Source of the DNA: Coleofasciculus sp. B1-GNL1-01
GTDB taxonomy: Bacteria > Cyanobacteriota > Cyanobacteriia > Cyanobacteriales > Coleofasciculaceae
Reading direction: 5' to 3' (one strand)
NCBI GenBank assembly: GCA_040220235.1
Contig: JAVJTO010000084.1
DNA: 64,000 bases
The notes under the pieces are model-generated. The model did not search any database, was not told the origin of the DNA, and saw only the letters and a list, made by a program, of their open reading frames with translations. The translations under genes were made by a program, and so were the position numbers. Numbering within the stretch: the first letter of the stretch is position 1; every line of letters begins with the position of its first letter. This document shows positions 7,829 to 26,301 of the stretch, piece by piece.

Positions 7829-8196
7829 GATTCTTCACCTATCTGTATCCCACTACTTATTCTATCTATAGTACGATAAAACGGCATTTTAGGAGCAAAA
7901 ATCTCCTAAATACTTAATTCTTGAGCAATTTATCCCTTTCAGTATAGATGGTATACTACTTTCGCCGCGATCGCACTCACCCACACTGGTTGTATCGGGT
8001 GCAGGTCAACGAGAGTTTGGGTCTTTGGAACCTAGACGGAGCCTTGTTTTTGAGTAACCTAACGCCCTCGCGCTTCCTGAACATTACGTGCTTTCCATCA
8101 TGCGTACCCCTTTTAACCTCATTATCGTTAAGGAGAAATCCATTAATTTTGTTGACTCCCCCTTATTTTTTGTTAACCCTGAATAAAGGATAAGGT

Positions 8197-8265
8197 GGTG
8201 GGTTACGGCGGAGTGATCATTAAATGATTTGTTTCCTAAATTGAACACCGCCTAACCCACCCTAC
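8197..8265. repeat. GTAG-type REP-like long palindrome
   Basis: GGTGGGTTACGGCGG ... CCGCCTAACCCACCCTAC inverted arms just downstream of the WD40 gene. Confidence 0.6.
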
Positions 8266-8275
8266 AGATTAAGGT

Positions 8276-10963
8276 TTATCTATCTATATTTACAGGAGTG
8301 TACTTTTGACAAAGGTGGAATGCATCAGAATGAGTCTTGGCGTGAACAGGATTGTCGTTTCCGATTAGGCTGACACACCCTTGCTGCAACAGCTTGTTCA
8401 GATTCAAATTCCACAAGCGAATTGTTCCATCCGAATTCGCTAATGCTAATTGTTCACCATCCGGGGAAAAGCTAACCTTGGCGACTGGATTTTTATGACT
8501 CGGTAAGGCTTTAAGTAATGTACCATTTTGATGCCAGAGTCTGACGCGGTTATCGGTACTTGTCGTGGCTAACATTTGGTTATCTGCACTAAAGCTAAAG
8601 CTGGTGACTGGCTTAGTATGGTGTAAGATGTTCTGCAATGTGCCATTTTTACGCCAGAGTTTCACTGTACCCTCTGTACTGCTAGAGGCAATGAGTTGAC
8701 TATTGGGACTAAATTGGATATCAATAATCGCATCAGTGCTTGCATCAAAGGTGTGGAGTAATTGACCATCCCGACACCGCCACAGTGCGATCGCGCCTTG
8801 GTGATCTACAGTTGCTAGTTTATCACCGTTGGCAGAAAAACGGACATGGGAAATATGGGGACGAGTTAACGTTTGCGCTAATTGATTCTCCAGATATTGC
8901 CACAGTTGAATCTCCTTATCGGTACTAATGGCAATTTGTTGGCGGTTGGGATTAAAACTGATACTGGTTATCGTATCAGCATCAACGTTTACAGTTGCCT
9001 GTCGTTGACCCTTTTGATCCCAAACTTGAATTGTACCATCAGCGCTAGCACTGGCGAGGGTTTGGCTATCGGAACTAAAGCTAAGATTAAGAATGCGATC
9101 GCCTGCTTCCTGTAAGGTATAAACTCGGTTAGATTTATCGGGATCACTCCGATGATGCCACAGCTTTACTGTACCATCCTGATAAGCGACAGCCACCATC
9201 TGACTATCAGGACTAAACTGAAACTGAGTCACTGGGGAAGAATGTCCGGGTAAAGTATTCGGCTGACTGAAACTCGAAATCACTTGATTGAATGCCATAA
9301 TTACCCGCATTTTGGTATCCGCTGTCACGCCGAGAGACTGTTTCAGTTCTTTGGTGGCGCGAATACTTTCGATGAGTGCATCTCGCGGTTTATTAGTGGC
9401 TAAAAGGGATTCGGATAATAAACTCAGGGTATTGATTTTAATATTCCGTTCTTCGATAGAGGGTTTAACCCAAAAGACACTTATTAATACTGTTATAATT
9501 ACCGCCGCTGCCCCCGTGAGATATTGAAATCTTAACTGCTGTTCCCGATTTAATTTCGCTTGGATTAATTTTCGCTGCTGTTGTTCTTTCGTCAATTCTT
9601 CCAGTAATTCTTTTTCGCGACGCAGTTGCTTAATTTCCGCTTGATTTTGGCTTTCGATTTGCCGTAACTGGGTTAGGGTTGCTTCTTGAGACGCCGCGAG
9701 GAAATGATAGTCGCGATCGCTTAAACTTTTCCCTGTCGCCCAATCTTGAGCATCTTGTAAAGCCTGTCCGCGCAATAATCGGGATTCATCTTGACAATCT
9801 GAGGCAAACCAAGCGGTTAACGCTTCACTGTATGGGCGTAATTCAGCCAGGGCATTTTCTACCCAATTGGCGGTAAAAATCGACTGATAAATTCGGTTTT
9901 TGACTCTGAGTTTTCCCCTTTGACAAACCACTAATCCACTCAGGCATAATTGAGCTTGTTCTGGACTCTCATCAGCAATCAGTTCTCCTTGGTGTAAAAT
10001 TCGCTGATAAAGTCCCAATAATCGACCCGCCAATTGCTCATTTTTGAGAATGCGATCGCGGATAGTCCGGATATGGGCAGGTTCATCCTGAGATTCCCAG
10101 TTTTCCAGGAGTTGAGATTGGACAATTTGCCCAATTAAGGGTGAATTTAAATCGTTGATTGAATCATTAATAGTCGAGTGATGCACCCCGACTAGGCTTG
10201 AATGTTGCACCACTACTTTACAGAGTTTTTGGGTTAAGAAAGGTTGTCCACCTGTCCAGGTTAAAATCTCTTGCAATACAGTTTCAGGATGATTAACATT
10301 TCCCGCTAATCCCTGAATCAACGGTTGGCAATCTTGGAATTGAAACCCCTGCAATTCTATCGCCCGACCAATATTAAAAGGGGTGCGAGTGGGGTCACTA
10401 ATTAAATCCGAGGGTGTAGCAACTCCGACTAGGACAAACGTCAGGCGTTGATAATCACTATTTTGGGCGCGTTTATTATAGCAGGCGCGAATCAAGGCAA
10501 AAAAGTCATCGGCAGCTTCCTGCAAGCTGAGAATACTATCGATTTCATCGATAAAAATAACAATAGGTTGAAATAACTCTTTCAGCAGTACCGTTGAAAG
10601 AAGTTCACTCAATCGCTGCACCGGAGACATCCAATCTCGCCCTTGCCACCAATCCATAAATTCCAGGGGATTGAATAGATTAAAGCTATTCAATAACTGA
10701 TAGGCTACACCGCCATACCACTGATCCAGGGATTGGCTACCAATATCCGATAAATCAATTGCAGCACAGGCAAATCCTTCCGCAGATAGCTTTTGCATGG
10801 TGCGAACCAGTAAGCTAGATTTACCCATTTGTCGGGAATTAAGGACATAACAAAATTCTCCAGCTTTGAGTCCTTTATAGAGTTCCGTGTCTGCTTGTCG
10901 GATAATATAGGTGGGGGCATCTTCAGGTAGACTACCACCGATTTGGTAAGGAAAATTAGTCAT
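8276..10963 (-). CDS. AAA-like (AAA_35/STAND-type) ATPase - coiled coil - TM - WD40 repeat protein
   Basis: [15 protein letters not shown] (Walker A), IFIDEID (Walker B), GGQPFLTQK, one hydrophobic helix, ~7 FSPD/DGTVKLW repeats; ATG 10963 overlaps the upstream stop (ATGA). Confidence 0.88.
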
Positions 10964-12327
10964 AACTTCAGCCAATCTAATAGTTCTTGAATTAACCAGG
11001 TACTTTCCTGTTCACCCAAAGCACCGCCCAGTTTATACGTACCCCGTGTTGATGGAATTCTGACTTCATAAATAGACCCCCGATTCACTAGGAAGGGATT
11101 CCCAATATTTGTAATGGATTGCTGCTGGCGACCATATTTGAAGAACCCTGTCTGTCGCTCTAGCTGGAATAGGTTACGATGGCGATCCAATAAAACGTGA
11201 GTTTTTTGACCAAAAAAATTAGCCAGTAAAGCAACAAATGCTGTTAATAATGCTAAGACTATCAACAGCCCCATTAATGCTGGTTTATCTATTAGCAAAA
11301 TAACTTGATTTATCAAGGCAAAAAATAAAGCTAAAGTAAAGTAGCCGAAAATGATAGCTCCCAGCCAGCTATATTGGATTATTTTACGAAGTCCCGGTGC
11401 AGGAATTGTAATCACGAGTTGTTTCATGGATTTATTAATATTGATTTTAATCAGACTCCCTGACGGTTTATAAGTTTTGATTCGAGTCGGATTAGGCGCG
11501 GCAGTAGAGAGATTAACATGTCCTGATATTAGCGATTTCATAGCTTGTTTGGCGGTGCTAAAGCGCTTTTCTAACCCAATTTCCGTCATCTGCTCAATCC
11601 AAGGGATAAAATGGGAGTTAATACTTATGCGATCGCGAAAATAAATCCGCCCTTCTTTTTGAGGTAAATCAGCCGGGGCTGTACCCGTTAGTAGGTGAAT
11701 TAAAGTTGCGCCCAACGCATATAAATCGGAAGCCGCCACCGCCCGTCCCAAAAACTGTTCTAAGGGCGCATAACCACTCGTCCCCACCACAGTAAACGTC
11801 ACTCCGGTAACAGCCGCTTGCGCTTGTACTGCCCCAAAATCCACCAGATAAACTTGCTTGTCTTCACCTAAAATCAGATTACTGGGTTTAATATCTCGGT
11901 GCAATACGGGCGGACTCAATTCGTGTAAATAAATCAGAATATCTAGAACTTGAGTCGCAATCGCACGAACCTGTGTCTCACTAAACCGTTTATTTTTATC
12001 TAATAATTCTTGAAGCGAATCTCCCGGAATATAGTCTTGCACCAGTCCAAACCACGGCAACTGTAACCCCGCTTCTTTGTCTAAGGAAAAATAATCACGA
12101 TAGCGGGGAATTCGGGGATGATTCAGGGCTTGTAAAACTTGTGCCTCGCGTTCAAATAGTTTAAGTTCCTCCCACTGCATTTCCGGGCTAAAGGCTAATA
12201 GCTTAACCGTCACTTGTTCATTAGATTGTAAATCCGTCGCTAACCAAGTTTGTCGCCCTGCTGCTGTGCGCCCTAATCTTTGATGGAGCTGGTATTGTTC
12301 TTTTAAACATTGATCACGATTGAACAC
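10960..12327 (-). CDS. Ser/Thr protein kinase, class A copy A4 (kinase, 2 TM, C-terminal domain)
   Basis: [22 protein letters not shown]; two hydrophobic helices; GTG start with GAGGT RBS. Confidence 0.9.
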
Positions 12328-12485
12328 AAGATTACCTCGTTTTTCTCGATCATAACGTTCCTATCTTCCTGGGTACAGCGAAAGAGTCTGGTGCGTTACC
12401 TCCTTTTCGTTTCAGGTTGTAGAGGGTTGTGTACATTGCCGATTAAGTTTGATGTCTTTAACCGCTTATTTATAGGTTACATCTG

Positions 12486-13994
12486 TTACCCATAGTCCGC
12501 TAGCCAATCTTGAATTTCTTGACGCAGCCAGTTCGCTTCAGATTGAGTTAAGTAGTTTGCCAAGGGATAGGTATTAACTTCAGCCTGCCCAGAAACTGAT
12601 TGACCTAAACGTTGGCTACTATAATAGTTATTGGTTCTAGTTTGGAGATAGATAGCACGCCCATTGTTTCCTATAAATACGTTTTTAATGTCTGAAGTAT
12701 TTCCCCGGCAATGTAAATGCTCAATAACGAATTGATTAAAATTAATTTTTATTGAATATCCCCCCAGGTTAGCAATGCTTGTTTTTTTTATGTCCTGCAA
12801 ATACTTTCCTAGTGTATTGTAACCTAGTGACACCAAATGAGATAAGCATAAAATCAATATCCCGCTAACAAACGCAATCAAAAAAAACATGAGCAGGCTA
12901 GTTGATGAGAATTCTTTTAAGACTATGCTTACCACTATACCAAGTGTCGCAAATACAACTCCACCAGCAGCAGATACTAAAAGTAATGTCAGCAATGCCC
13001 AGACAATGAATAAGCTAAAATACAAGGCGCACTTTAATCCATTTTTAAACACTATTTCCCAAAATAGTAGTCTGTCTTGATGGATTTGCAAAATAATTTC
13101 TCGCGGCGATTTATGAACTTGAATTCGACTCAAAAAAGGAGGCTGAATAGTTTCCAATTGCTCAGGAATCGATCGCCCCGTTTCTAATGCATCAAGTGCT
13201 TGATTTGCACAACTCAAGCGTAAGCCTAAGTCAGGTTCCGTCAAGGCTTCAATCCAGCTGATCAACTGAGAATTAATACTCACCTGATTCCGAAACTGTA
13301 TCCGTAAATTCCGTTGGGGTAAATCCGCCGGCGGAATACCCGTTAACAAATGAATTAACGTCGCGCCCAAAGCATAGAGATCAGACGCAGGAACCGCTTG
13401 TCCCCAAAACTGTTCCAAGGGGGCATATCCGCTTGTCCCCACCACAGTAAACGTCACTCCTTCTACCGCCGCACTGTTTTGCACTGCACCAAAATCCACT
13501 AAATAAACCTGCTTCTCGTCTCCTAAAATCAGGTTACTCGGCTTAATATCCCGATGCAATACAGGGGAATTTAACCCATGTAAATAGGCGAGAATTTCCA
13601 GCACTTGTTTAGCAACTGAACGAACTTGTGACTCCGTAAACCGCTTTCCCTCATTCAGTAACTGCTGTAAGGATTTTCCGGGAATATAATCCTGTACCAA
13701 GCCAAACCAACACAACCCCGCGCCTATTTGTTGATCCAACGAAAAGTAATCACGGTATTTAGGAATCCGGGGATGATTCAGTTGCTTCAGCACCGCCGCT
13801 TCCCGTTCAAATAACTTAAACTCATCCCACTCCATCTGGGGATTAAACGCCAGTAACTTAACTGTCACCTGTTCGCCAGACTGTAAATCGTGAGCTAACC
13901 AGGTTTGTCGCCCTGCGTTATTCCCTAACTGATGTTGCAGTTGATAACGTTCCTTTAACGATTGATTGGGATTAAATAAATGATGATCTATCAT
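12486..13994 (-). CDS. Ser/Thr protein kinase, class A copy A3
   Basis: Intact Hanks motifs; long hydrophobic hairpin; C-terminal L...SEA.WL..EI.DWL motif shared with other class A copies. Confidence 0.9.
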   Translation of the reverse strand: MIDHHLFNPNQSLKERYQLQHQLGNNAGRQTWLAHDLQSGEQVTVKLLAFNPQMEWDEFKLFEREAAVLKQLNHPRIPKYRDYFSLDQQIGAGLCWFGLVQDYIPGKSLQQLLNEGKRFTESQVRSVAKQVLEILAYLHGLNSPVLHRDIKPSNLILGDEKQVYLVDFGAVQNSAAVEGVTFTVVGTSGYAPLEQFWGQAVPASDLYALGATLIHLLTGIPPADLPQRNLRIQFRNQVSINSQLISWIEALTEPDLGLRLSCANQALDALETGRSIPEQLETIQPPFLSRIQVHKSPREIILQIHQDRLLFWEIVFKNGLKCALYFSLFIVWALLTLLLVSAAGGVVFATLGIVVSIVLKEFSSTSLLMFFLIAFVSGILILCLSHLVSLGYNTLGKYLQDIKKTSIANLGGYSIKINFNQFVIEHLHCRGNTSDIKNVFIGNNGRAIYLQTRTNNYYSSQRLGQSVSGQAEVNTYPLANYLTQSEANWLRQEIQDWLADYG

Positions 13995-14089
13995 AACTCT
14001 CTGTTGCTATAACGGCTCAACGTGCTGAAACATCAAAATCGGCAAAACTACTCCCTATAAAATGGCTCAGATTCATAATTTTTGACGCA

Positions 14090-16096
14090 TCACGGTGAAG
14101 GTTTATAACGCTCAATTGCCGTCATTGCTTTATCTTTACCGCCATAGTATAATTGAATGGTTTCAGTAATCTGAACCGCTCGTTTCTGCTCACCTATAGC
14201 CACTAACCGACGCACCATCGCATCTAAGGCTTTAGCTTTTTGTTCGTAGTTGGTGATTGTGTTAGCCACCTGAATTGCTTGTTCATACTCAGTCGCCGTG
14301 GTTAAATACGGTGCGATCGCTGCTATGGTATTACTGCGAATCGAGTCATGGGGGATAGTACGAGTCACTGTCAGGGCTTGGGTATACTCACCAGCATCTG
14401 TTAAGTTGAGTGCGATCGCTTGTACCCTTTCGATGATGGGCAAGGCTGGATCATATTCACTAGCCGCCGCTAACTCCAAGGCAATGACGGCTAATACCTT
14501 TGCCTTTAGCCATTCGTCTGTAATCGTTTCCGCAATCTGAACCGCTTGCTCAGTCTTACCTGTAACCGTTAAATTAGTGGCAATAATCTCCAATGCCTTT
14601 GCCTTAAACCATTCGTCTGTAATCGTTTCCGCCGTATCAAGGGCTTGATTATACTCACCAGCACTGGCATAATTAGCCGCACGCTCTGCTAAATTCCAAT
14701 CGTTCCCGATAAAAGAGCCTCCATTAATTTTTACTGTATTCGGGGCGCATTGAATCACCCCCTCTTGCACAATTGGTGCTGGGGGGCGATTAGTACCCAA
14801 AGATTTTGCCTTACACAGAATTGTAAATGTCGATCCTCTTGTTCTTTCAACGCTACCCCAAAAAACACCGCCAACATAGCTCTTTTAATTGGATTTACGG
14901 GAAACACCATAGTTAATGGAACTCAGGGGCGTGGTATGACTGGAATAGCTATAGTTTTTTGTTTCAGAGATAATACCTAATTCCAGATTTTTTACATTAT
15001 CAGTAAATGCATTTTTATCGAGGAAGTAGGCTTGCTGGGCGCGATTCATTGCACCAACATATTGTTTAGCTTCTGACTGCTTAGCTTGATGAGCCGCATT
15101 TGAAAAGAATAGAGAAATTAGTCCCCCCAAACCAATTAGTCCGAGCAACGCTAAACAACCACAACCATACCCACCATCTGTGTCAGATAAAGGGCTAATT
15201 GATTTTTGGGCGGAGAATTTACTGGGGTGAGAAATAAAACAAGATTGCAACGAAGACAACGCTTGACGTGCTGTACTCAACCGTTTTTCCGGTGCAGGTT
15301 GAATTAACTGGTTAATCCAGTTGGCAAAATTCGGATTAATTCGGACTTTATCTTGAAACTTGATCCGCATTTGCTGCTGGGGCAATTCCGCCGGCGGAAT
15401 CCCTGTTAATAAATGAATTAGCGTTGCACCCAAGGCATAAAAATCAGAGGCAGGTACAGCCTTTCCCCATAACTGTTCTGGTGGTGCATAACCACTGGTT
15501 CCCACCACTGTAAACGTAGCACCTTCAGCTTTGGCTTTGTCTTGCACAGCACCAAAATCTACCAGATAGATTTGGTTATTTTCCCCCAAAATCAGATTAC
15601 TTGGCTTAATATCGCGGTGGAGAACAGGCGGACTTAATTCGTGTAGCTCGATTAAAATCTTGAGCAAATCCTCAGCAAACTGACGCACCTGATTTTCGCT
15701 AAACGGTTTCCCTTGCTCTAATAACTGTTTGAGAGAGTCACCGGGAATATAGTCTTGCACCAAACCAAACCACGGTAATCCGGTGACATGGGAGGTATCA
15801 CTATTATTATCAGCAGAAGATGCTTCTAAACTCGCTCCAACACCATCCACAGAAAAATAATCCAGATATTTAGGAATGCGAGGATGATTAAGATTTTTGA
15901 GAACTTGAGCTTCTCGTTGAAACAACTTTAAATCATCCCACTGCATCTGAGGATTAAATGCCAGCAATTTAACCACAACATCTGCTGGTGGTGAGGCTTG
16001 CATATCCGTGGCTAACCAAGTTTGTCGCCCCGCATTTTGCCCCAATTTTTGTTGTAGCTGATAGCGATCGCGTAAAACTTGTCCTGCACTTAACAT
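14090..16096 (-). pseudogene. Class B kinase-TM-pilin G/H-helical repeat gene (B3) split by an in-frame stop
   Basis: ORFs 14885-16096 and 14090-14800 are in the same frame; TAA at 14885-14887 aligns with TTA (Leu) in paralog B1 and the intervening 28 codons read KSYVGGVFWG... Confidence 0.85.
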
Positions 16097-16257
16097 AATT
16101 GACTCCTTCCTGCTTCATCCGTCACATCCCTGGCTAACAATTCTATGGCTCTATAGATTATCTCTCATAACGGATTACCACCTCTATTGTGATAACGGCT
16201 CAATCAGGTGAACTATCCGAATCGGCAAAATTCGTCTATAATATTCATGATGACGCA

Positions 16258-18189
16258 TCACTGTGAAGTTTTATAACGCTCAATTGCCGCCATCGCTTTT
16301 CCTTTACCACCATAATAAGATTGGATGATTTCAGCAATCTGAACCGCTCGTTTATGGTTCCCTGTAGCGACTAATCGGCGTACAATGGCATCCAAGGCTT
16401 TGGCTTTTGGTTCATAGTCCGTAATCGTTTTAGCTACCTGAATGGCTTGTTCATACTCAGCAGACGTGGTTAAATAGGGTGCGATCGCTTGGATAGTTTT
16501 ACTCTTAATCGAATCATCGGTGATATGACGAGTTACTTTCAAGGCTTGCTCAGACTCACCAGCATCAGTTAACTTGAGTGCGATCGCTTGTATCTTTTCA
16601 ATGATTGTCAAAGCTTGCTTAGACTTACCCATCGCCACTAACTCCGTGGCAATAACCTCAAGTGCTTTGACTTTAACCCAACGCTCTGTAATCATTTCCG
16701 CAGTATCAAGGGCTTGATTGTACTTACCAGCTTTCGCGTAATTAGCCGAACGATAAGCTAACTTCCAATCTTCCCCCAGAAAAATTCCTTTTTCATCCTC
16801 TCCATAAGACTTGAGCTTTACTGTCTCCGGGGCGCATTGAATCACACCATCTTCTACAATTGGTGCTGGAGGGCGATGAGTACCGGGAGATTCTGCCTCA
16901 CACAGAATTGCAAATGTTGTCATCTCTCCTGTTGCTGCAGCGTCACCCAAAAATACAGCGCCCACATAGCCTTTCATCTTTGATTTTTTGGAAACGGCAT
17001 AGTTAATAACGCTCAAGTAATTTGTATGCATTGAATAGGTATAGTTTTCTGTTTCAGTGTTAAATCCCAGTCCCAGTTCAGCAATAGCATCAGTAAAATT
17101 ACTTTCCTCTAAAAAATAAGCTTGCTGGGCGCGATTCATTGAACTAATATATAGTTTTGCTTCTGACTCTCTGGCTTTACCAGCGCTATTAAGAAATGAA
17201 GGAATTACTATGATAATAAAGCCAATTCCCATTAGTCCTAGCCAAGCCAAGCAGCCACAACCGTAACCACTTTTCGTATCCGATGAACGGTTTATTGATT
17301 GTTGCACAGGAATTTGATTCTGGTGATAAATAAAACAGGATTGCAGCAAAGAAAAAGCCTGACGTGCCGTACTCAACCGTTTTTCCGGTGCAGGTTGAAT
17401 TAACTGCTCAATCCAGTTAGCAAAACTCGGCTCAATCTTGACTTTATCTCGAAACTTAATCCGCATTCGCTGCTGGGGCAATTGAGACGGCGGAATCCCT
17501 GTTAATAAATGAATCAAAGTCGCACCCAAAGCATATAAATCTGATGCAGGTACAGCTTTTCCCCATAACTGTTCAGGGGGTACATAACCACTGGTTCCCA
17601 CTACTGTAAATGTAACCCCTTCAGCTTTGGCTTTGTCTTGCACAGCACCAAAGTCTACCAAATAAATTTGGTTATCCTCCCCCAAAATAAGATTACTCGG
17701 CTTAATATCACGATGGAGAACAGGCGGACTTAATTCGTGTAGCTCGATTAAAATCTTGAGCAAATCCTCAGCAAAATGACGCACCTGATTTTCGCTAAAT
17801 CGTTTCCCCTGATCCAATAGCTGTTTGAGAGATTCACCGGGAATATACTCTTGTACTAAAGCAAACCAAGGTAAGTCAGTTACATTAGACTTATCATTAT
17901 TATCGGCAGCATATTCTTCTAAACCCGCCTCGATATCATCCATTGAAAAATAATCAAGATACTTCGGAATGCGAGGATAATTGAGATTATTAAGAACTTG
18001 AGCCTCTCGTTTAAACAGCTTCAACTCATCCCATTGCATCTGGGGATTAAACATCAAAAATTTAACCACAACGGTTTTTGGCGGTGAGGCTTGAGTATCC
18101 ATCGCTAACCAAGTTTGCCGCCCTGCATTATGTCCCAACTGTTTTTGTAGCTGATAGCGATCGCGTAAAACTTGTCCTGAACTTAACAT
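16258..18189 (-). CDS. Ser/Thr kinase fused to type IV pilin-like G/H domain and helical repeats (B2)
   Basis: Kinase motifs; GYGCGC + TM; KARESEAK.YISSMNRAQQAYFLE..F..I.ELGLG pilin G/H-like signature with two Cys; 33-aa repeats. Confidence 0.88.
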   Translation of the reverse strand: MLSSGQVLRDRYQLQKQLGHNAGRQTWLAMDTQASPPKTVVVKFLMFNPQMQWDELKLFKREAQVLNNLNYPRIPKYLDYFSMDDIEAGLEEYAADNNDKSNVTDLPWFALVQEYIPGESLKQLLDQGKRFSENQVRHFAEDLLKILIELHELSPPVLHRDIKPSNLILGEDNQIYLVDFGAVQDKAKAEGVTFTVVGTSGYVPPEQLWGKAVPASDLYALGATLIHLLTGIPPSQLPQQRMRIKFRDKVKIEPSFANWIEQLIQPAPEKRLSTARQAFSLLQSCFIYHQNQIPVQQSINRSSDTKSGYGCGCLAWLGLMGIGFIIIVIPSFLNSAGKARESEAKLYISSMNRAQQAYFLEESNFTDAIAELGLGFNTETENYTYSMHTNYLSVINYAVSKKSKMKGYVGAVFLGDAAATGEMTTFAILCEAESPGTHRPPAPIVEDGVIQCAPETVKLKSYGEDEKGIFLGEDWKLAYRSANYAKAGKYNQALDTAEMITERWVKVKALEVIATELVAMGKSKQALTIIEKIQAIALKLTDAGESEQALKVTRHITDDSIKSKTIQAIAPYLTTSAEYEQAIQVAKTITDYEPKAKALDAIVRRLVATGNHKRAVQIAEIIQSYYGGKGKAMAAIERYKTSQ

Positions 18190-18231
18190 GAGTTACTCCT
18201 GGGAATTATAATTTATTAATTACATCCGTTG

Positions 18232-19635
18232 TTAACAATTTGCCAGCCAATTTTTAATTTCACAAACCAGCCAACTTGATTCAGATAGTGTTAGTCGATT
18301 TGCCAAACAATAGTCTTCCTTTCTTGTCTTGAGATAGATGGCTTTACCTGAATGGTTACTACCTACTCCTTGAATCTCTGAAAGGAGTAGATGGAAATCA
18401 AATCTCTGACAAGTCAATTCCTCCATGTCAAATACTACAGAGTATCCCCAGAAATTAGCACGTATAAGATTACGGATATCTCTGTACATTTTTTTTAAAT
18501 GAATCAGCCCTTCTTTATTCAAAAGAATCCAAAGCCCAAATATATAAAGACTTGCTATTATTGTTAAAAATGGCATAAAGAATAAATTCTTTAATATATT
18601 AAACCCAATTAAGGTTAGGCATAAATCTACAAATAACAATGATAAAATTAAACTAAAGAATAGAATTAATTTCATGAATAAAAATACGGGAATATTCACA
18701 AAGCACATTATTCCTTTTGCAGCAAAATAAACAATAAGTTTATTTTTGTTTTTCTCAAGCTTAATTCGTGTTGAAAAAGGCGGACATACAGTTTCTAACG
18801 GATAACGAATAGATTGCCCTGTTTCCAATGCATCAAGAGCTTGACTAGCACAACTCAAGCGCAAATCTAGGTCAGGTTCCGTCAAGGCTTCAATCCAACT
18901 TATCAACTGAGGGTTAATACTCACCTGCTCCCGAAATTGTATGCGTAAATTTCGTTGCGGCAAATCAGCCGGAGAAACACCTGTTAATAAATGAATTAAC
19001 GTCGCGCCCAAAGCATAGAGATCCGAAGCCGGAACCGCTTGTCCCCAGAACTGTTCCAATGGTGCATATCCACTCGTTCCCACCACGGTAAACGTCACTC
19101 CTTCTACCGCCGCACTATCTTGCACCGCACCAAAATCAACTAAATAAATCTGCTTATCCTCTCCTAAAATCAGATTACTCGGCTTAATATCTCGGTGTAA
19201 TACTGGAGAATTTAACCCATGTAAATAGATGAGAATATCCAGCACTTGTTTAGCAATCGAACGAACCTGTGACTCCGTAAAACGCTTTCCCTCATTCAGT
19301 AACTGCTGTAAAGATTTGCCTGGAATATAATCCTGCACTAAGCCAAACCAACATAACCCCGCCCCAATTTTTTGATCCAAGGAAAAATAATCCCGATACT
19401 GAGGAATTCGAGGATGATTCAGTTGCTTTAGCACCGCTGCTTCCCGTTCAAACAACTTAAACTCATCCCACTCCATCTGGGGATTAAACGCCAGTAACTT
19501 CACCGTCATCTGTTCACCAGACTGTAAATCTTGAGCTAACCAGGTTTGACGCCCTGCATTGTTCCCTAATTGCTGTTGCAGTTGGTAACGTTCCTTTAAG
19601 CATTGGTTGGGATGAAACAAAAAATTATCTCTCAT
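18232..19635 (-). CDS. Ser/Thr protein kinase, class A copy A2
   Basis: Kinase domain nearly identical to A1; divergent AT-rich TM hairpin. Confidence 0.9.
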   Translation of the reverse strand: MRDNFLFHPNQCLKERYQLQQQLGNNAGRQTWLAQDLQSGEQMTVKLLAFNPQMEWDEFKLFEREAAVLKQLNHPRIPQYRDYFSLDQKIGAGLCWFGLVQDYIPGKSLQQLLNEGKRFTESQVRSIAKQVLDILIYLHGLNSPVLHRDIKPSNLILGEDKQIYLVDFGAVQDSAAVEGVTFTVVGTSGYAPLEQFWGQAVPASDLYALGATLIHLLTGVSPADLPQRNLRIQFREQVSINPQLISWIEALTEPDLDLRLSCASQALDALETGQSIRYPLETVCPPFSTRIKLEKNKNKLIVYFAAKGIMCFVNIPVFLFMKLILFFSLILSLLFVDLCLTLIGFNILKNLFFMPFLTIIASLYIFGLWILLNKEGLIHLKKMYRDIRNLIRANFWGYSVVFDMEELTCQRFDFHLLLSEIQGVGSNHSGKAIYLKTRKEDYCLANRLTLSESSWLVCEIKNWLANC

Positions 19636-19734
19636 AATACCCTTTCTCTGTAATCATGCAACGAATAAATCCTCTGGGCTATCGCCACCAAAATAGTTCT
19701 TATTAAGATGTATCAGATTCATGATGTTTATGCC

Positions 19735-21777
19735 TCATCGGTAATTTTTATAACGCTCAAGTGCTGCCATCGCTTTATCTTTACCACCATAGTAAGATTG
19801 GATAGTTTGAGCAATCTGAACCGCTCGTTCAGGGTTTCCCGTAGCGACTAATCGGCGTACAATGGCATCCAAGGCTTTGGCTTTTAGTTCGTAGTCTGTA
19901 ATCGTTTTAGCCACCTGAATCCCTTGTTCATACTCAGCAGACGTGGTTAAATAGGGTGCGATCGCTTGGATAGTCTTACTCTTAATCGACTCATCTGTGA
20001 TACTACGAATTACTCGCAAGGCTTGTTTATACTCAGCAGACGTGGTTAAGTAGGATGTGATCGCTTGAATCGTCTTACTCTGAATCGAGTCATCGGTGAT
20101 ATGACGAGTCACTCTCAGAGCTTGGGTATACTCACCAGCATCAGTTAACTGGAGTGCGATCGCTTGTATCCTTTCAATAATTGTCAAAGCTTGCTTAGAC
20201 TTACCTACCACCATTAACTCCGTTGTAATTAAGTCCAGTGCTTTTACCTGAATCAAGTCATTTGTAATCGTTTCCGCAGTATCAAGGGCTTGGGTATACT
20301 CACCAGCTTTCGCGTAATTAGCTGAAACATCTACTAACTTCCAATCTTCCCCCAGAAAAATGCCCCGATCATTTTCTCCATCAAGATTTTCTGTACCCGG
20401 AGCGCATTGAAGCATACCATTTTCTACAATTGGTGCTGGGGGGCGATTAGTACCCTTATCTTTTGTCTCACACAAGATAGCTAATGTTGTTAATTCTCCT
20501 GTTGCTTCAACCCTACCAAAAAACACACCGCCCACATAACTCTTTAAATCGGATTGGCGGGAAACACTATAGTTGATCGAACTCAAAAGAGTGGCATAAG
20601 TTGAATAGGTATAGTTTGTGGTTTCACTTTTTACACCAAGTCCTAGCTCGTCAAATTCATTCGTAAAATTAGCCTTCTCTAAAAAATAAGCTTGCTGGGC
20701 GCGATTCATTGAACCAATATACTGTTTTGCTTCGGATTGCATTGCTTTATCAGCGCTACTAAGAAATGAAGGAGTTAATAGGAAAATAAAGCCAATTCCA
20801 ATTAGTCCGAGCAAAGCCAAGCAGCCACAACCGTAGCCACTATCATTATCAAAATAGCGATCATCTACATAGCGTCTTGAGTGTTGAGCAGGGATTTGAT
20901 TGTGGTGAGGAATCAAAGAGGATTGCAGTGCAGAAAAAGCTTGACGTGCCGTACTCAACCGTTTTTCCGGTGCAGGTTGAATTAACTGATCAATCCAGTT
21001 AGCAAAATTTGGCTCAACCTTGACTTTATCTTGAAACTTAATCTGCATTCGCTGCTGAGGCAATTGAGATGGCGGAATCCCTGTTAATAAATGAATTAAA
21101 GTCGCACCCAAGGCATATAAATCTGATGCAGGTACAGCTTTTCCCCATAACTGTTCAGGGGGCGCATAACCACTGGTTCCCACTACTGTAAATGTAACCC
21201 CTTCAGCTTTGGCTTTGTCTTGCACAGCACCAAAGTCTACCAAATAAATTTGGTTATTTTTTCCTAAAATTAGATTGCTGGGCTTAATATCACGGTGAAG
21301 AACAGGCGGACTCAATTCGTGTAAATAGATTAAAATATTGAGCAAGTCCTCGGCAAAATGACGCACCTGATTCTCCTTAAACCGTTTCCCTTGATCTAAT
21401 AACTGTTTGAGAGAACTACCGGGAATATACTCTTGCACTAAAGCAAACCAGGGTAATCCGTTTACGTTAGACTGATCACTATTTTTATTATCGATAGAAG
21501 AGTCTTCTAAACCCGCTTCAACATCATCCACTGAGAAATAATCCAGATACTTCGGAATGCGAAGATGGTTTAGATTCTTTAGAACTTGAGCCTCTCGTTG
21601 AAACAGCTTCAACTCATCCCATTGCATCTGGGGATTAAACGCCAGCAATTTAACCACAACGGCTGTTGGCGGTGAGGCTTGTGTATCCATCGCTAACCAA
21701 GTTTGCCGCCCTGCATTATGTCCTAATTGTTTTTGTAGCTGATAGCGATCGCATAAAACTTTTCCTGCGCTTAACAT
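19735..21777 (-). CDS. Ser/Thr kinase fused to type IV pilin-like G/H domain and helical repeats (B1)
   Basis: Same architecture as B2 with one extra 33-aa repeat. Confidence 0.88.
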   Translation of the reverse strand: MLSAGKVLCDRYQLQKQLGHNAGRQTWLAMDTQASPPTAVVVKLLAFNPQMQWDELKLFQREAQVLKNLNHLRIPKYLDYFSVDDVEAGLEDSSIDNKNSDQSNVNGLPWFALVQEYIPGSSLKQLLDQGKRFKENQVRHFAEDLLNILIYLHELSPPVLHRDIKPSNLILGKNNQIYLVDFGAVQDKAKAEGVTFTVVGTSGYAPPEQLWGKAVPASDLYALGATLIHLLTGIPPSQLPQQRMQIKFQDKVKVEPNFANWIDQLIQPAPEKRLSTARQAFSALQSSLIPHHNQIPAQHSRRYVDDRYFDNDSGYGCGCLALLGLIGIGFIFLLTPSFLSSADKAMQSEAKQYIGSMNRAQQAYFLEKANFTNEFDELGLGVKSETTNYTYSTYATLLSSINYSVSRQSDLKSYVGGVFFGRVEATGELTTLAILCETKDKGTNRPPAPIVENGMLQCAPGTENLDGENDRGIFLGEDWKLVDVSANYAKAGEYTQALDTAETITNDLIQVKALDLITTELMVVGKSKQALTIIERIQAIALQLTDAGEYTQALRVTRHITDDSIQSKTIQAITSYLTTSAEYKQALRVIRSITDESIKSKTIQAIAPYLTTSAEYEQGIQVAKTITDYELKAKALDAIVRRLVATGNPERAVQIAQTIQSYYGGKDKAMAALERYKNYR

Positions 21778-21816
21778 GAGTTACTCCTTGAAATAATAAT
21801 TTATGAGTTACGTCCG

Positions 21817-23220
21817 TTATTGACAATTTGCTAGCCAATCTGTGATTTCACCAACTAACCATTTTGATTCAGATGGTTTTAGTCGATTGACTAAACAGTA
21901 GTTTCCTGTTCTTGTCTTGAGATAGATAGCATTACCCGAATGATTACTACCTACTTCTCGAATCTCCGCAAGGCGTAAATAACGATCAAATCTCTGACAA
22001 ATAGATTTTTCTGCATCAAACACTATAGAGTATCCCCAAAAAACAATTTTTAAACTGCTAATATCTCTGTACATTGCCTTTAAATGAGATACTCCTTCTT
22101 GTAGTAATTTTATAGTTAAAGTTATCCAAAATATATTTGTCATCAATACAAATATATTCATCAAATTCACCAAAGCTCCAAAAATACTAAATATTAGAAC
22201 TAAAACTATAATTATTAAAAGTATAATCAAAGCGACAAAAGGAATTAGTTTCAACATAAAAAAGTAAGCTTCTAGGGGAACCAAGAGTCGGCTTGTAGGC
22301 AAATCAATGACAAGTTTATTTTGACTTTTTTTAAGCTTAATTCGTGTTGAAAAAGGCGGATGTACAGTTCCCAATGGATAACCCATAGAACGAATCGATC
22401 GCCCGGTTTCCAATGCATCAAGAGCTTGACTCGCACAACTCAAGCGCCAATCTAGGTCAGGTTCCGTCAAGGCTTCAATCCAACTGATCAACTGAGAATT
22501 AATACTCACCTGATCCCGAAATTGTATGCGTAAATTTCGTTGCGGTAAATCAGCCGGAGAAACACCTGTTAATAGATGAATTAACGTCGCGCCCAAAGCA
22601 TAGAGATCCGAAGCCGGAACCGCTTGTCCCCAGAACTGTTCTAAGGGTGCATATCCACTCGTTCCCACCACAGTAAACGTCACTCCTTCTACCGCCGCAC
22701 TATCTTGCACCGCACCAAAATCAACTAAATAAATCTGCTTATCCTCTCCTAAAATCAGATTACTCGGCTTAATATCTCGGTGCAATACAGGTGAATTTAA
22801 CCCATGTAAATAGATAAGAATCTCCAGCACTTGTTTAGCAATTGAACGAACCTGTGACTCCGTAAAGCGCTTTCCCTCATTCAGTAACTGCTGTAAGGAT
22901 TTGCCGGGAATATAATCCTGCACTAAGCCAAACCAACATAACCCCGCCCCAATTTTTTGATCCAAGGAAAAATAATCCCGATATTGAGGAATTCGGGGAT
23001 GATTCAGTTGCTTTAGCACAGCCGCTTCTCGTTCAAACAGCTTAAACTCATCCCACTCCATCTGGGGATTAAACGCCAGTAACTTAACTGTCACCTGTTC
23101 GCCAGACTGTAAATCTTGAGCTAACCAGGTTTGACGCCCTGCATTATTCCCCAATTGCTGTTGCAGTTGGTAGCGTTCCTGTAAACGTTGCTTGGGATTA
23201 AACAAGAGATTAGTTTTCAT
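21817..23220 (-). CDS. Ser/Thr protein kinase, class A copy A1
   Basis: [24 protein letters not shown] hairpin; conserved C-terminal domain. Confidence 0.9.
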   Translation of the reverse strand: MKTNLLFNPKQRLQERYQLQQQLGNNAGRQTWLAQDLQSGEQVTVKLLAFNPQMEWDEFKLFEREAAVLKQLNHPRIPQYRDYFSLDQKIGAGLCWFGLVQDYIPGKSLQQLLNEGKRFTESQVRSIAKQVLEILIYLHGLNSPVLHRDIKPSNLILGEDKQIYLVDFGAVQDSAAVEGVTFTVVGTSGYAPLEQFWGQAVPASDLYALGATLIHLLTGVSPADLPQRNLRIQFRDQVSINSQLISWIEALTEPDLDWRLSCASQALDALETGRSIRSMGYPLGTVHPPFSTRIKLKKSQNKLVIDLPTSRLLVPLEAYFFMLKLIPFVALIILLIIIVLVLIFSIFGALVNLMNIFVLMTNIFWITLTIKLLQEGVSHLKAMYRDISSLKIVFWGYSIVFDAEKSICQRFDRYLRLAEIREVGSNHSGNAIYLKTRTGNYCLVNRLKPSESKWLVGEITDWLANCQ

Positions 23221-23324
23221 AAGGATTGACCGCCTCTATTGCTGTAACTGTTCAACGTAATAAAAAATCTGAATGGGCAAAAATAGTTCGGATGAGATGT
23301 ATCATATTGGCGCTTGTTTACGCC

Positions 23325-24359
23325 TCACTGGGAATATTGATAACGCTCAATTACTGCCATTGCGTTATCTTGACCGCCATAGTAAGATTGGATAGTTTGA
23401 GCAATCTGAACCGCTCGTTTAGGGTTCCCTGTAGCAATTAATCGACGTACAATGGCATCCAAGGCTTTGGTTTTTGGTTGATAATCTGTCATCGTTTTAG
23501 CCACCTGAATCGCTTGCTCATGCTCAGTCACTGTGGTTAAATAAGGTGCGATCGCTTGGATAGTCTTACTCTTAATCGAGTCATCGGTGATACTGTGAGT
23601 TACTCTCAAGGCTTGCTCAGACTCACCAGCATCAGTTAAGTTGAGTGCGATCGCTTGTATCTTTTCAATAATTGTCAAAGCTTGCTTAGACTTACCAGCA
23701 GCCGCTAATTCCGTGGCAATAACCTCAAGCGCTTTAGCTTTAACCCAGCTCTCTGTAATCGTTTCCGCAGTATCAATGGCTTGATTGTATTCACCAGCTT
23801 TCGCGTAATTAGCTGAAATATATGCTAACTTCCCATCTTCTCCGATAAAAATTCCCTGATTATTCCCTCTATCAATACTTTCTGTACCCGGAGCGCATTG
23901 AAGCGTACCATCTTCTACAATTGGTGCTGGAGGGCGATTAGTACCGGGAGATTTTGCCTGACATAGAATTGCAAATGTTGTCGATTCTCCTGTTTGTTCA
24001 ATGTTACCAAAAAACACACCGCCAACATGGCTCTCTAAATCGGATGTTCGGGAAACGCTATAGTTAATGACGCTCAAAGGAGTGGCATGACTTGAATAGG
24101 TATAGTCTGTGGTTTCAGTGCTAATACCTAGTCCCAGTTCAGCAATATTATCGGTAAAATTACCTTCCTCTAAAACATAATCTTGCTGGGCGCGATTTAT
24201 TGAGCCAATATAGTGTTTAGGTTCGTATTGCTGTGTTTCACGAGCGATATTAGTAAATTCAACTAATAGATAATATAGTCCTAACAAGCCAATTAATCCC
24301 AACAAAGCCAAGCAGCCACAACCATAGCCACTATTTGTATCATTTGTATCAGCAGTCAT
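23325..24359 (-). CDS. Kinase-less type IV pilin-like G/H + helical repeat protein (B0)
   Basis: Starts MTADTNDTNSGYGCGC with AGGAG-containing RBS; collinear with the C-terminal half of B1-B3. Confidence 0.8.
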   Translation of the reverse strand: MTADTNDTNSGYGCGCLALLGLIGLLGLYYLLVEFTNIARETQQYEPKHYIGSINRAQQDYVLEEGNFTDNIAELGLGISTETTDYTYSSHATPLSVINYSVSRTSDLESHVGGVFFGNIEQTGESTTFAILCQAKSPGTNRPPAPIVEDGTLQCAPGTESIDRGNNQGIFIGEDGKLAYISANYAKAGEYNQAIDTAETITESWVKAKALEVIATELAAAGKSKQALTIIEKIQAIALNLTDAGESEQALRVTHSITDDSIKSKTIQAIAPYLTTVTEHEQAIQVAKTMTDYQPKTKALDAIVRRLIATGNPKRAVQIAQTIQSYYGGQDNAMAVIERYQYSQ

Positions 24360-24445
24360 TGAACTCTCTCTCCTACGAAGTAAACCGCACAAAACCACCC
24401 AACTTAAAGCCAAAAATTAATCATTGCCCCTTTCACCTCTCTCTC

Positions 24446-24487
24446 CCTCTGCGTACCTCTGCGCGAACCTCTGCGAACCTCTGCGTT
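24446..24487. repeat. Short tandem repeat of CCTCTGCG x4
   Basis: CCTCTGCGTA CCTCTGCGCGAA CCTCTGCGAA CCTCTGCGTT. Confidence 0.7.
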
Positions 24488-24515
24488 TCAAAAAAACTAA
24501 CATTAGCCCCTTCAA

Positions 24516-25322
24516 CTACCCTTGAAGCTGCATCAAATAATAAGCCATGGGAATAATTCCAAAGGAACCCACTTGCATCGACATAACCGTCATTGCCAGA
24601 TTAGGATGCTTCTGCTTTAATAAACCTGCGATCGCAAACCCCTTCGTTACAAAACCCAAAATAAAGCCAATCAGCAGTAACCCGGCTGTCACAGCATACA
24701 GAAAAGCTAGGTTTGCCGAACTATCCATAGCGCTAATCAGAACTAACGTAGCAAAGCCCAAAGCCATGAAGAAAAGATAAACACAAAACTTAAACATCCC
24801 TTGACTGATATTTTTCAAATACCCCCGACGCTGACAGAATGAAAGACACATCGCCGCCGATAAAATCGAGCCAATGAGAGCCAGAGGAAACATTACACTT
24901 AAAGAAACCCAACTAACCAAACTAGCCAACAGATAAAACCCATTCGCCAACCCTGCTATCACAAAAGCTTTTCGGAAAGGAATTAACTCTCGTTTGCACA
25001 GGATAAAAGATTCAATTAAAACCGTAGCCAATAAGGGTAATCCATACCCATACATCAATGACATAGCCGGAAGTGTAATTAGACTAGAGCCAAATAACCA
25101 TCCTCTATTCAATCCACCACAAGCCAAGGCGGGTAATGTCAGCATTAGCAGTAAGGAGACTGTACCTCCTGTCACCTTGAGCCAAGATAGTCTCGGCGAC
25201 TGCGGCTTAACAGGGATACCCCGGAAAGGAACCAAGGGAGCAGGTGTCAGAGGAAGCAGGGTTAAATCCAGGCTTGGCTTCTGTGTCATTGGTATTCTCC
25301 AGCAACTCGTGTTATGTCCCAT
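24516..25322 (-). CDS. Multi-pass membrane protein, first gene of the kinase array
   Basis: About 6-7 hydrophobic segments after a signal-like PALA site; start may be the second Met (25289). Confidence 0.7.
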   Translation of the reverse strand: MGHNTSCWRIPMTQKPSLDLTLLPLTPAPLVPFRGIPVKPQSPRLSWLKVTGGTVSLLLMLTLPALACGGLNRGWLFGSSLITLPAMSLMYGYGLPLLATVLIESFILCKRELIPFRKAFVIAGLANGFYLLASLVSWVSLSVMFPLALIGSILSAAMCLSFCQRRGYLKNISQGMFKFCVYLFFMALGFATLVLISAMDSSANLAFLYAVTAGLLLIGFILGFVTKGFAIAGLLKQKHPNLAMTVMSMQVGSFGIIPMAYYLMQLQG

Positions 25323-25493
25323 CTAATCAGTCCCGTCTTTGAGATCCCATCGGAGTTATTCGAGAACTCATCGACTTCTCATTGACTTCGTTGAGATGAG
25401 GTTACTGGACTATATCTCTCCAACTTCAGGGGCTTATGCAATGGGTGTCCCATTTTTATCACCTGGTCTTTTTTCAGTCGCTTCTGCCTCTCA

Positions 25494-25606
25494 TAAGCTG
25501 TCACGCCTTTAAATTGGGAATGGCTAGCGAGCAAGATGCTCAATGCAGTGAGCAAGATGCTCACACTACAACAAGGATTTCGTCATTATTGATATTAAGG
25601 TTTAAA
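25494..25606 (+). mobile_element. MITE family 1 copy, right end missing
   Basis: TAAGCTGTCACGCCTTTAAATTGGGAATGGCTAGCGAGCAAGATGC matches 51005-51132. Confidence 0.65.
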
Positions 25607-25776
25607 ATTTCACCCATGCGGGTATCACTTTCACCCATTCGGGTGTATTTATTAACTTCAAAAAGTGATATTTTTATACAAACTAGTCAACCAAGGTCGT
25701 ATCATTTTGTAAATAAAATACAAAGTTGATTTGTTGCCAAAATAAAATAGAATTAAAAAGATACATAGGTGCAACC

Positions 25777-26211
25777 ATGCAACTTAGAAACGAGAACTAT
25801 TCAAAGTTGCCTCGTTTCCTCCATCGCTATTTTCCGCTTCAGAGGATAGGGGCAAAACGATTAGCAGGCTCAACGTTAACCCAAGTCCTAACCCTAGCCA
25901 TTGCTGTTGGCTTGACCAATCTGGGAGCAACGTTAGCTCAAGTTCCGGGAAATAGTACGATAAACTCGCCAACACCGCAGTCTTTCCCCTCTCCTCGATT
26001 GCCTAGGCGTGAGCTCAACGTAGAACCTGTGCGACCTGCACCAATTCCCGCTCTCTATGAACATCCTGATTTCTTTGAGGAAGGACACGAAGATTTCGAG
26101 GAAAAAATTGACCAGTTAAGACTCCAGAATACGCCAGATTCTTCCGAAGACGAGGTACTCACAATTGAAGAGTCAGCGTACTGGGAAAATCAAGACCATG
26201 GAGAGAGTTGA
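25777..26211 (+). CDS. Putative secreted Pro-rich protein, short paralog of the next gene
   Basis: Signal-like helix ending LAQ; YEHPDFFEEG and VLTIEE.AYW.N.DH motifs shared with 26410-27318. Confidence 0.7.
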   Translation: MQLRNENYSKLPRFLHRYFPLQRIGAKRLAGSTLTQVLTLAIAVGLTNLGATLAQVPGNSTINSPTPQSFPSPRLPRRELNVEPVRPAPIPALYEHPDFFEEGHEDFEEKIDQLRLQNTPDSSEDEVLTIEESAYWENQDHGES

Positions 26212-26246
26212 TTGACGAACAAATCCCACCTTGACCTAAATTAACT

Positions 26247-26301
26247 GTTGGTAATCAGCGCTTAAGCGCTTCTGCCACTAAAGTGGCTACTACGAACTCA
26301 G
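26247..26301. repeat. Double-hairpin repeat (family 2), degenerate copy
   Basis: AGCGCTTAAGCGCT and GCCACTAAAGTGGC hairpins followed by TACTACGAAC; related to 31408-31472 and 58755-58819. Confidence 0.65.

Follow-up and report, generated by a model that had tools for sequence, protein, structure and literature searches.

Introduction

Hanks-type kinases have been tied to pili in cyanobacteria before: SpkA of Synechocystis alters the expression of the pilA operon and motility, and Slr1443 (SpkE) is cited as acting in pilin modification, both according to the available portion of a review (PMC11863333). A 2026 paper on cyanobacterial minor pilins (PMC13759059) describes, in the part accessible to us, pilin-like proteins with a Ser/Thr kinase domain, e.g., Oscil6304_4885; these fusions lack the alpha1-N segment and are proposed as regulators and not as pilus subunits. 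NTPase-centred conflict systems of multicellular bacteria, with TIR domains, kinases and periplasmic sensors, are known from PMC7159879 and PMC10907252, of which excerpts were consulted. Here we describe a locus in a stretch of 64,000 nucleotides (hereafter the window) of contig JAVJTO010000084.1 from Coleofasciculus sp. B1-GNL1-01, in which an array of membrane-bound protein kinases and pilin-like proteins is located between a membrane protein (M) and a STAND-like NTPase of the AAA_35 family.

The locus may represent a genus-specific tandem expansion of a conserved two-kinase operon within the cassette slot of a locus formed by M and the AAA_35 NTPase. The explanation that we prefer, although we rate it at slightly less than an even chance, is that an envelope-sensing kinase module was recruited into this old AAA_35/M locus, probably in a conflict-related role. 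If this wiring is true, a single pathway for sensing at the envelope of a multicellular, mat-building cyanobacterium would comprise Hanks-type receptor kinases, pilin-like proteins and NLR-like NTPases, components that are usually studied apart.

The locus and its genes

All coordinates are positions in the window, where the locus spans 8276-25322 on the minus strand. Related loci carry labels of this report (L001-L003, L120, etc.), as do contigs of the genome from which the window was taken (C17, C44, etc.). In order of transcription the genes are:

M, 24516..25322, minus strand: open reading frame (ORF) of 268 amino acids (aa) with five to six hydrophobic segments and no Pfam family
B0, 23325..24413, minus strand: class B protein without a kinase domain; transmembrane (TM) helix, Pilin_GH domain (97 bits) and helical repeats
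A1, 21817..23220, minus strand: class A kinase; Pkinase domain and a two-helix membrane hairpin within a split PH-like tail
B1, 19735..21777, minus strand: class B kinase; Pkinase domain, one TM helix, Pilin_GH domain and helical repeats
A2, 18232..19635, minus strand: class A kinase with a tail type unlike that of A1
B2, 16258..18189, minus strand: class B kinase, related to B1 and mosaic in sequence
B3, 14090..16096, minus strand: class B kinase gene interrupted in frame by a single TAA
A3, 12486..13994, minus strand: class A kinase whose tail is of a fourth type
'A4', 10960..12327, minus strand: kinase of class A architecture from a separate kinase clade, C
STAND-like NTPase, 8276..10975, minus strand: 899 aa with AAA_35, a helical/coiled-coil region, a TM helix at 485-503 and a WD40 propeller

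The initial annotation of this DNA had reported ten co-directional genes with gaps below 200 bp, and this layout was confirmed, with intergenic gaps of 39-161 bp and one overlap. At the overlap the TGA stop codon of 'A4' and an ATG, likely the start codon of the NTPase (10963), are joined as ATGA at 10960-10963. For M the true start is likely at residue 12, which gives a protein of 257 aa. The Pkinase model of Pfam matched A1, B1, A2, B2, B3, A3 and A4 with 109-113 bits (cut-off 31.7), and the Pilin_GH model matched B0, B1, B2 and B3 with 64-111 bits (cut-off 28.9). The A-B pair had also been named as the duplicated unit, and this too held: the stop codons of A1 and A2 (21817 and 18232) are 3585 bp apart, and families of direct repeats with a spacing of 3570-3590 bp span the A-B unit.

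In B3 a single TAA at 14885-14887, inside the Pilin_GH match, breaks an otherwise full-length class B frame, which is why ORF lists give this gene as two ORFs (403 and 236 aa). B3 is likely a pseudogene, or else a split gene. The site of the TAA is covered by RNA-library contigs that differ at three positions in approximately 1240 bases. B0 aligned with the outer parts of B1-B3, and kinase-less forms of the B0 type (341-363 aa) are retained in related arrays. M is a single-copy gene in its genome and had no matches in Pfam, NCBIfam and PADLOC; the 48 relatives found were cyanobacterial proteins of some 257 aa, none of them named, and a protein-atlas search with M returned only unnamed clusters and weak leads.

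An older conserved cluster around the NTPase

Matches to the N-terminal 559 aa of the NTPase, as many as 12 in one genome, were found in 127 of the 151 genomes of the order; the family is very large. Within this family an ortholog subgroup from other cyanobacterial families (ca. 880-940 aa) showed 59-67% identity over the 559 aa, compared to 49-58% for other paralogs, and all 15 orthologs checked had the TM helix at the same position. Fourteen NTPase-ortholog loci from other cyanobacterial families (L102-L115) were surveyed for their gene content. A gene of about 600 aa with the domain order helix-turn-helix (HTH)-TIR-AAA_35 was divergent from or adjacent to the operon in 13 of these loci, and NfeD and/or SPFH (Band_7) genes were likewise present in 13, with SPFH and NTPase following each other without genes between them in three. 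One to three Pilin_GH genes were located directly upstream of the NTPase in half of the loci (7/14), which came from four families. The N_methyl model matched one of the six small free Pilin_GH proteins scanned (L109), and at L110 a VIT+Pilin_GH protein of 1024 aa (L110:3822-6896) is encoded upstream of the NTPase ortholog. A homolog of M was found in or beside the ortholog operon at four loci, once directly adjoining the NTPase. Four loci contained a Peptidase_C39/PG_binding protein and two contained rhodanese proteins, and together with the M homolog these make up an M-type cassette.

Since M homologs occur at NTPase orthologs elsewhere, M and the NTPase are an old association, and since free Pilin_GH genes and M stand beside NTPase orthologs in other families, the link between pilin-like proteins and the NTPase predates the array. 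Judged from gene content, the kinase array and B0 fill what appears to be a variable cassette slot of an older, putatively envelope-facing NTPase locus. No PADLOC model matched the tested TIR-AAA_35, NfeD or SPFH proteins of the cluster. Among the matches listed from open-access papers and bioRxiv, none described the array or the cluster. The cluster (HTH-TIR-AAA_35, NfeD, SPFH, a variable cassette and AAA_35-TM-WD40) is therefore apparently undescribed and is new here. The earlier statement that no known system has such a layout stands for the array; the kinase-pilin fusion as such was already in print (PMC13759059, in its accessible part).

Distribution of the A-B kinase pair

Relatives of the kinases were collected from 71 loci of filamentous, non-heterocystous cyanobacteria, with Coleofasciculus species as the closest named records. 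In a kinase-domain tree of 145 rows constructed with FastTree, A1, A2 and A3 fell into clade A (53 rows, support 96) and B1, B2 and B3 into clade B (45 rows, support 86). Clade C, which comprised 31 rows (support 99) and has many solitary members, e.g., in Microcoleus, included 'A4', so that the initial assignment of this gene to class A was right with respect to architecture and wrong with respect to clade membership. Clade D (11 rows, support 100) consisted of the third genes of A-B-D triplets. Within 400 bp, 38 of 50 A-clade genes were followed by a B-clade kinase, and the expected linkage of the two classes outside the window was thereby confirmed; 30 of these 38 pairs had a Pilin_GH match and seven were A-B-D triplets. 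Of the other 12 A-clade genes, several are the last on their contig.

The same groups of loci clustered together in clades A, B and D, and because of this parallel branching the pairs are considered to be inherited as units. The A-then-B pair is an old and common cyanobacterial operon with several copies per genome and is not special to this locus; in the genome studied here, three more B kinases are encoded outside the window. The nearest relative of A3 was found at L004, with 98% identity in the kinase domain. As a side observation, a class B kinase of 849 aa at L041:11727-14276 has, according to the alignment, a second pilin-like segment after its helical repeats.

Variation and divergence among arrays

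An array in which M is followed by B0, A-B pairs, C kinases and the NTPase was seen in Coleofasciculus-like genomes only. The array in the window has two A-B pairs plus B3-A3, L001 has one A-B pair and kinase fragments of 102 and 91 aa, L002 has one A-B pair and two C genes, and L003 and L120 have two A-B pairs and two C genes each; L048, L025 and L022 are partial views of the same layout. The flank upstream of the array loci is syntenic and the downstream flank differs. The polymorphism expected of the array was therefore found as different pair content in related species, i.e., in a between-species comparison.

Kinase domains were 92-97% identical, compared to 20-67% for the tails. Nonsynonymous and synonymous divergence (dN and dS) was estimated pairwise by the Nei-Gojobori method. 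For the flanking genes M and NTPase, dS between species was 0.14-0.39. Class A kinase domains had a dS of 0.15-0.26, among paralogs in one genome and between species alike. In the TM hairpin and C-terminal domain of class A, dS was about 1-2 and identity 20-45%, unless the tails were of the same type. A2 and A1, for example, were 95% identical in the kinase (dS 0.20) and 34% identical in the TM part (dS 2.0). Four tail types were distinguished: type I (A1, L003a, L120a), type II (L001, L002, L003b), type III (A2, L048, L120b) and type IV (A3, L004), the tail of A3 being 70% identical to that of L004 and sharing 33-38% identity with the other types. In class B the linker, TM helix and pilin domain of B2 were 100, 96 and 72% identical to the B gene of L001, while its pilin domain was 90% identical to that of L048; exchange of segments has made mosaics of the B genes.

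The dN/dS ratios were 0.04-0.17 in the A kinase domain, 0.13-0.32 in the B kinase domain, 0.3-0.9 in the A hairpin, 0.26-0.64 in the A C-terminal domain, 0.37-0.82 in the pilin domain and 0.35-0.58 in the helical repeats. Short linker and TM segments at times exceeded 1, on approximately 20 codons only. The membrane and outer parts are under relaxed or mixed constraint. The simplest reading of these data is an old multi-pair array whose kinases were kept alike by gene conversion or recent exchange and of which the species keep different subsets of pairs. Much of the contrast between kinases and tails would then stem from homogenisation of the kinases and differential retention of four old tail types, and not from rapid diversification.

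Co-variation within pairs was examined as well. Across nine array pairs, divergence of the A tail correlated with that of the B linker/TM part (rho 0.39-0.46, p 0.01-0.02, among 25 uncorrected tests); with the B pilin domain or repeats, rho was about 0 in the same pairs. Cognate specificity of A and B, as the initial annotation had assumed, is not supported on this basis, the co-variation being too weak and having clear exceptions (L002 vs. L003b, W2 vs. L001).

Domain architecture and predicted topology

The catalytic residues were invariant in all 33 class A sequences (K46, H147-R148-D149, D167-F168-G169) and in all 29 class B sequences (K43, H161-R162-D163, D181-F182-G183), which together with the divergence values given above agrees with the first description of conserved kinase domains with intact Lys, HRD and DFG next to diverged membrane parts. 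The glycine-rich loop, read from the alignments as LG.NAGRQTW, is unusual in these kinases. A hydropathy scan gave one TM helix in each of B0-B3, two in each of A1-A4 and one in the NTPase (485-503).

In B1-B3 the TM helix is located between the kinase and the pilin-like domain, and two cysteines of the pilin domain were invariant in all 29 class B proteins, as expected of an exported pilin fold. Given these cysteines, the TM helix and the Pilin_GH match, the outer part of class B is predicted to be periplasmic. None of the B proteins of the locus matched the N_methyl prepilin motif of Pfam, which prepilins require for processing and assembly, and some 310 residues of kinase and linker come before the pilin helix in B1-B3. 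A GCGC motif before the B TM helix was considered as a general feature and discarded, as it occurs in array-type B proteins only.

The pilin-like outer domain is confined to class B. AlphaFold models of A1 (mean predicted local distance difference test score 82) and of its tail alone (92.8) show a tail that begins with two beta strands, continues with a long helical hairpin and another six strands, and closes with a helix at the C-terminus. When the tail was compared with 48,161 chains, the sole match to the whole tail was EROS (8kei_D; Z 11.0, 134 residues, root-mean-square deviation (rmsd) 6.5, 11% identity), and the other top matches covered the hairpin alone. A protein-atlas search with the A tail gave the EROS family as a weak lead (score 0.83) and otherwise unnamed clusters. 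By its modelled fold, the class A tail is an EROS-like split PH domain with a membrane hairpin, which is a likeness of fold only. As class A has two TM helices its C-terminal tail should be cytoplasmic, and class A proteins should, on this model, be membrane-anchored kinases and not ectodomain-bearing receptors. The pilin-like ectodomain that had been proposed for both partners therefore remains for class B, and the description as paired receptor kinases with pilin-like ectodomains is unsupported because class A lacks an ectodomain.

The NTPase has AAA_35 at residues 14-257 (127 bits) and WD40 repeats at 573-880 (180 bits), and the GKS (Walker A) and hhhhDE (Walker B) motifs are readable in its sequence. 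This order, in which a P-loop NTPase is followed by a helical region and then by sensor repeats at the C-terminus, is that of STAND/NLR-like proteins. NACHT and NB-ARC were absent among the best 25 of 52 Pfam families for this protein, and a sequence search of the PDB gave weak RuvB/AAA+ matches at best (E 0.009).

Neighbouring genes and further observations

Directly downstream of the NTPase there is an AbiL-like pair (window 5814-7828, minus strand):

AAA_21/AbiLi, 6437-7828, minus strand: PADLOC AbiLi, 300 bits
RloB/AbiLii, 5814-6422, minus strand: 92 bits

On the other side, three ORFs of 97, 161 and 302 aa without a Pfam family are divergent from M (25436-27318, plus strand), and L001-L003 and L120 retain ORFs of matching size (155 and 305 aa) in the corresponding place. 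At 25529-25563 there are two tandem copies of a 21-nt unit with the palindromic core GAGCAAGATGCTCA. This core occurs in 73 copies in the genome, often in runs with a 21-nt period, and has no Rfam match; the repeat around it probably explains a contig depth of approximately 10,000-fold at 25023-25600 in the RNA libraries. Within the window, Rfam gave no matches and a tRNA scan no genes. A promoter/terminator scan found sites no more numerous than in shuffled sequences, and no terminator-like site was found in the minus-strand intergenic gaps of the array.

The AAA_35 genes of the genome come in two kinds, a short one of about 445 aa with a full AAA_35 domain and a variable N-terminal head, and a long one of about 800-1300 aa with a partial AAA_35 match and WD40 or other sensor parts. 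Genes of both kinds are often adjacent, which recalls sensor/helper pairs (examples of AAA_35 genes are C96:15131-17197, C101:3165-5378, C12:25545-27592, C23:29968-32258, C88:31763-33834 and 49726-52386, C133:24954-27017, and C17:133865-135627). The NTPase in the window is of the long kind, without a short partner beside it. Two fusions were also noted, namely AAA_35+Guanylate_cyc+CHASE2 on C17 (966 aa, L123:6867-9767) and Pkinase+AAA_35 on C44 (658 aa, L124:5329-7305).

Interpretation of the locus

In the mechanism that we propose, the pilin-like and WD40 parts would sense an envelope cue, probably one related to pili or pilins, B and A would work as one heteromeric kinase pair, with docking inside the membrane as the role of the A tail, and phosphorylation would pass the signal to cytoplasmic targets, including or parallel to the AAA_35 NTPase. 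Gene turnover, the pseudogene, the AbiL neighbours and the TIR-bearing partner in other families, all of them read from sequence, point to conflict or defence in preference to housekeeping. An immune or conflict role, which had been suggested at the outset, gains from the TIR-bearing AAA_35 partner that NTPase orthologs have in other genomes, and is plausible but unproven.

Linkage of the kinases to AAA_35 genes was found in part. Among 42 AAA_35 matches in the genome, which place 3.7% of the bases within 5 kb of one, three of the four B-kinase loci are within this distance (binomial 2e-4), a count that comprises four loci only and was made after the data were seen. On C17 (L123) the B kinase follows an AAA_35 gene and the AAA_35-cyclase-CHASE2 gene, on C44 an A-B pair is 2.2 kb from the Pkinase+AAA_35 fusion, and AAA_35 genes are beside A-B pairs in L007 and L017, which belong to two other genera. 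The link of the kinases to AAA_35 genes thus recurs, though not in most of the 71 loci.

The small number and late choice of loci in this count is one of several points that weigh against a recruited, conflict-related module. In most of the 71 loci the flanks examined are without an AAA_35 gene, and L004 (B-A-C, with a 152 aa fragment and a shortened B) is without an NTPase ortholog. The C44 fusion was rejected as a kinase of classes A-D, as it is only 30-34% identical to classes A-C. None of HTH-TIR-AAA_35, NfeD and SPFH was found in the flanks of the window or in L001-L003 and L120, and the best TIR-AAA_35 relative in the genome (63% identity) is located on another contig, without NfeD or SPFH. 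In PADLOC-DB 2.0 only the kinase domains had matches (PD-T4-6, mad6 and MkoA models), and M, B0 and the NTPase matched no family. As dN/dS was below 1 in every domain, positive selection is unsupported, and the diversifying sensor parts of the initial annotation give way to old tail types that were differentially retained. The WD40 propeller of the NTPase follows the TM helix and therefore probably faces the periplasm, a placement for which the hydropathy scan is the only basis. Metatranscriptome contigs from four marine/hypersaline libraries cover all 30 bins of 8000-25600 with at least 92% likeness and bridge the B2/B3, B3/A3 and A4/NTPase junctions; this evidence consists of contigs only, strand and transcript ends are not given and carry-over of DNA is possible, so that the coverage is a hint of expression and no proof of co-transcription.

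As the A-B(-D) operon is widespread and mostly away from AAA_35, housekeeping signalling also fits. Under this main alternative, which we regard as rather unlikely, the kinases would serve the type IV pilus, motility or exopolysaccharide, the array would be a neutral duplication whose tandem copies are kept alike by gene conversion, and the NTPase would be an incidental neighbour. The several paralogous A-B copies per genome, the purifying selection in all domains and the lack of the NTPase in L004 agree with it, as does the nature of the sensor part, since Pilin_GH recalls the ties of SpkA and Slr1443 to pilins (PMC11863333) and kinase-pilin fusions are proposed as regulators (PMC13759059), as far as the available portions of both sources go. 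An incidental neighbour is harder to reconcile with the recurrence of AAA_35 near B kinases in this genome and two other genera, with the free Pilin_GH and M genes that adjoin NTPase orthologs in other families, and with the ATGA overlap that couples the last kinase to the NTPase; moreover, gene loss, a nonsense codon and fragments would be unusual among core regulators. These latter traits are what a decaying duplicate cluster would lead one to expect, with most copies redundant, heading for loss and without an array-specific function, and the nonsense codon of B3, the fragments in L001 and L004, the shortened B of L004 and the variable copy number are in line with such decay. Most kinase genes are nevertheless intact with all catalytic residues, the kinase-domain dN/dS of 0.04-0.32 among paralogs and orthologs indicates ongoing constraint, and each tail type is conserved across species, which leaves decay with a slim chance.

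We attach an equally slim chance to self/non-self or kin recognition, the main idea of the initial annotation. Here neighbouring filaments would be contacted by the polymorphic outer parts of B, and of B0, and cognate A/B pairs would report a match or mismatch. The closest named relatives are bundle- and mat-forming Coleofasciculus, related species have different sets of pairs, the B genes are mosaic, and dN/dS is higher in the pilin domain (0.4-0.8) than in the kinase (0.13-0.32). The most diverged parts, however, are the class A hairpin and cytoplasmic tail and not the exposed surface, the pilin domains of class B retain 65-90% identity, contact with another cell is difficult for a domain that lies in the periplasm, behind the outer membrane, and the tail types are old paralog lineages common to species instead of strain-specific alleles. 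Improbable, though less so, is a periplasm-facing, NLR-like surveillance system in which the NTPase, with an extracytoplasmic WD40 sensor, and pilin-like baits would detect agents that attack type IV pili or exploit them, e.g., pilus-dependent phages. The baits would be B0 and the class B outer parts here and the free Pilin_GH prepilins in other families, and in Coleofasciculus the alarm would be relayed by the paired membrane kinases, instead of or besides the TIR-AAA_35 partner. If true, this would be a bacterial counterpart of the guard/decoy immunity of plants with its receptor kinases and NLRs.

Apart from the recruited, conflict-related module that we prefer, the conserved cluster would provide a testable case of a STAND-like protein that senses from the periplasm, and the A-B pair, with its EROS-like tail on one partner and the pilin-like domain on the other, provides a defined target for work on heteromeric bacterial Ser/Thr kinase receptors.

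Comparison with known systems

The class B proteins resemble the fusions of PMC13759059 in that an N-terminal kinase is fused to a pilin core without the conserved alpha1-N segment. The text of that paper, in the portion at hand, makes no mention of WD40, propeller, AAA or synteny, and the class A partner upstream, the tandem arrays, the helical-repeat extension and the AAA_35/WD40 link go beyond what this portion describes. With SpkA and Slr1443 the locus shares cyanobacterial Hanks-type kinases tied to pilin expression, motility or modification; unlike the locus kinases, these two are without a pilin-like domain, do not form A-B pairs and have no reported NTPase link in the available part of PMC11863333.

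Among anti-phage systems, the single-gene Ser/Thr kinase PD-T4-6 is similar to the extent that the A, B and C kinase domains match its models with up to 203 bits. The match is confined to the kinase domain, the models are generic kinase clusters, and the TM, pilin and tail parts are unmatched; scores for BREX PglW and MADS6 in NCBIfam were far below the cut-offs. The modelled class A tail resembles EROS (CYBC1), the chaperone of NADPH oxidase 2, in having a PH-like beta domain that is interrupted by a two-helix membrane hairpin. EROS is a eukaryotic protein without a kinase, and at 11% identity and a high rmsd the likeness of fold tells nothing firm about function. PilS of Pseudomonas aeruginosa is a histidine kinase with six TM helices that monitors PilA within the inner membrane via contacts between TM helices. 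Sensing of the PilS type is the kind of mechanism that may be proposed, by analogy, for the A hairpin and the pilin-like helices, PilS having no homology to the locus kinases.

The broadest likeness is to the STAND/NLR-like conflict systems, which also combine a P-loop NTPase and repeat sensors with partner TIR effectors, kinase regulators and variable components, are likewise enriched in filamentous or multicellular bacteria, and have sensors predicted to be cytoplasmic or periplasmic (PMC7159879, PMC10907252, as excerpted). The HTH-TIR-AAA_35/NfeD/SPFH cluster is not described in the excerpts of these two papers. Diversity-generating retroelement, vWA and caspase genes were not seen. Unlike in those systems, the NTPase here is of the AAA_35 family and not NACHT, NB-ARC or MoxR, a TM helix is predicted to place its WD40 part outside, and its companions are pilin-like proteins, NfeD/SPFH and paired membrane kinases.

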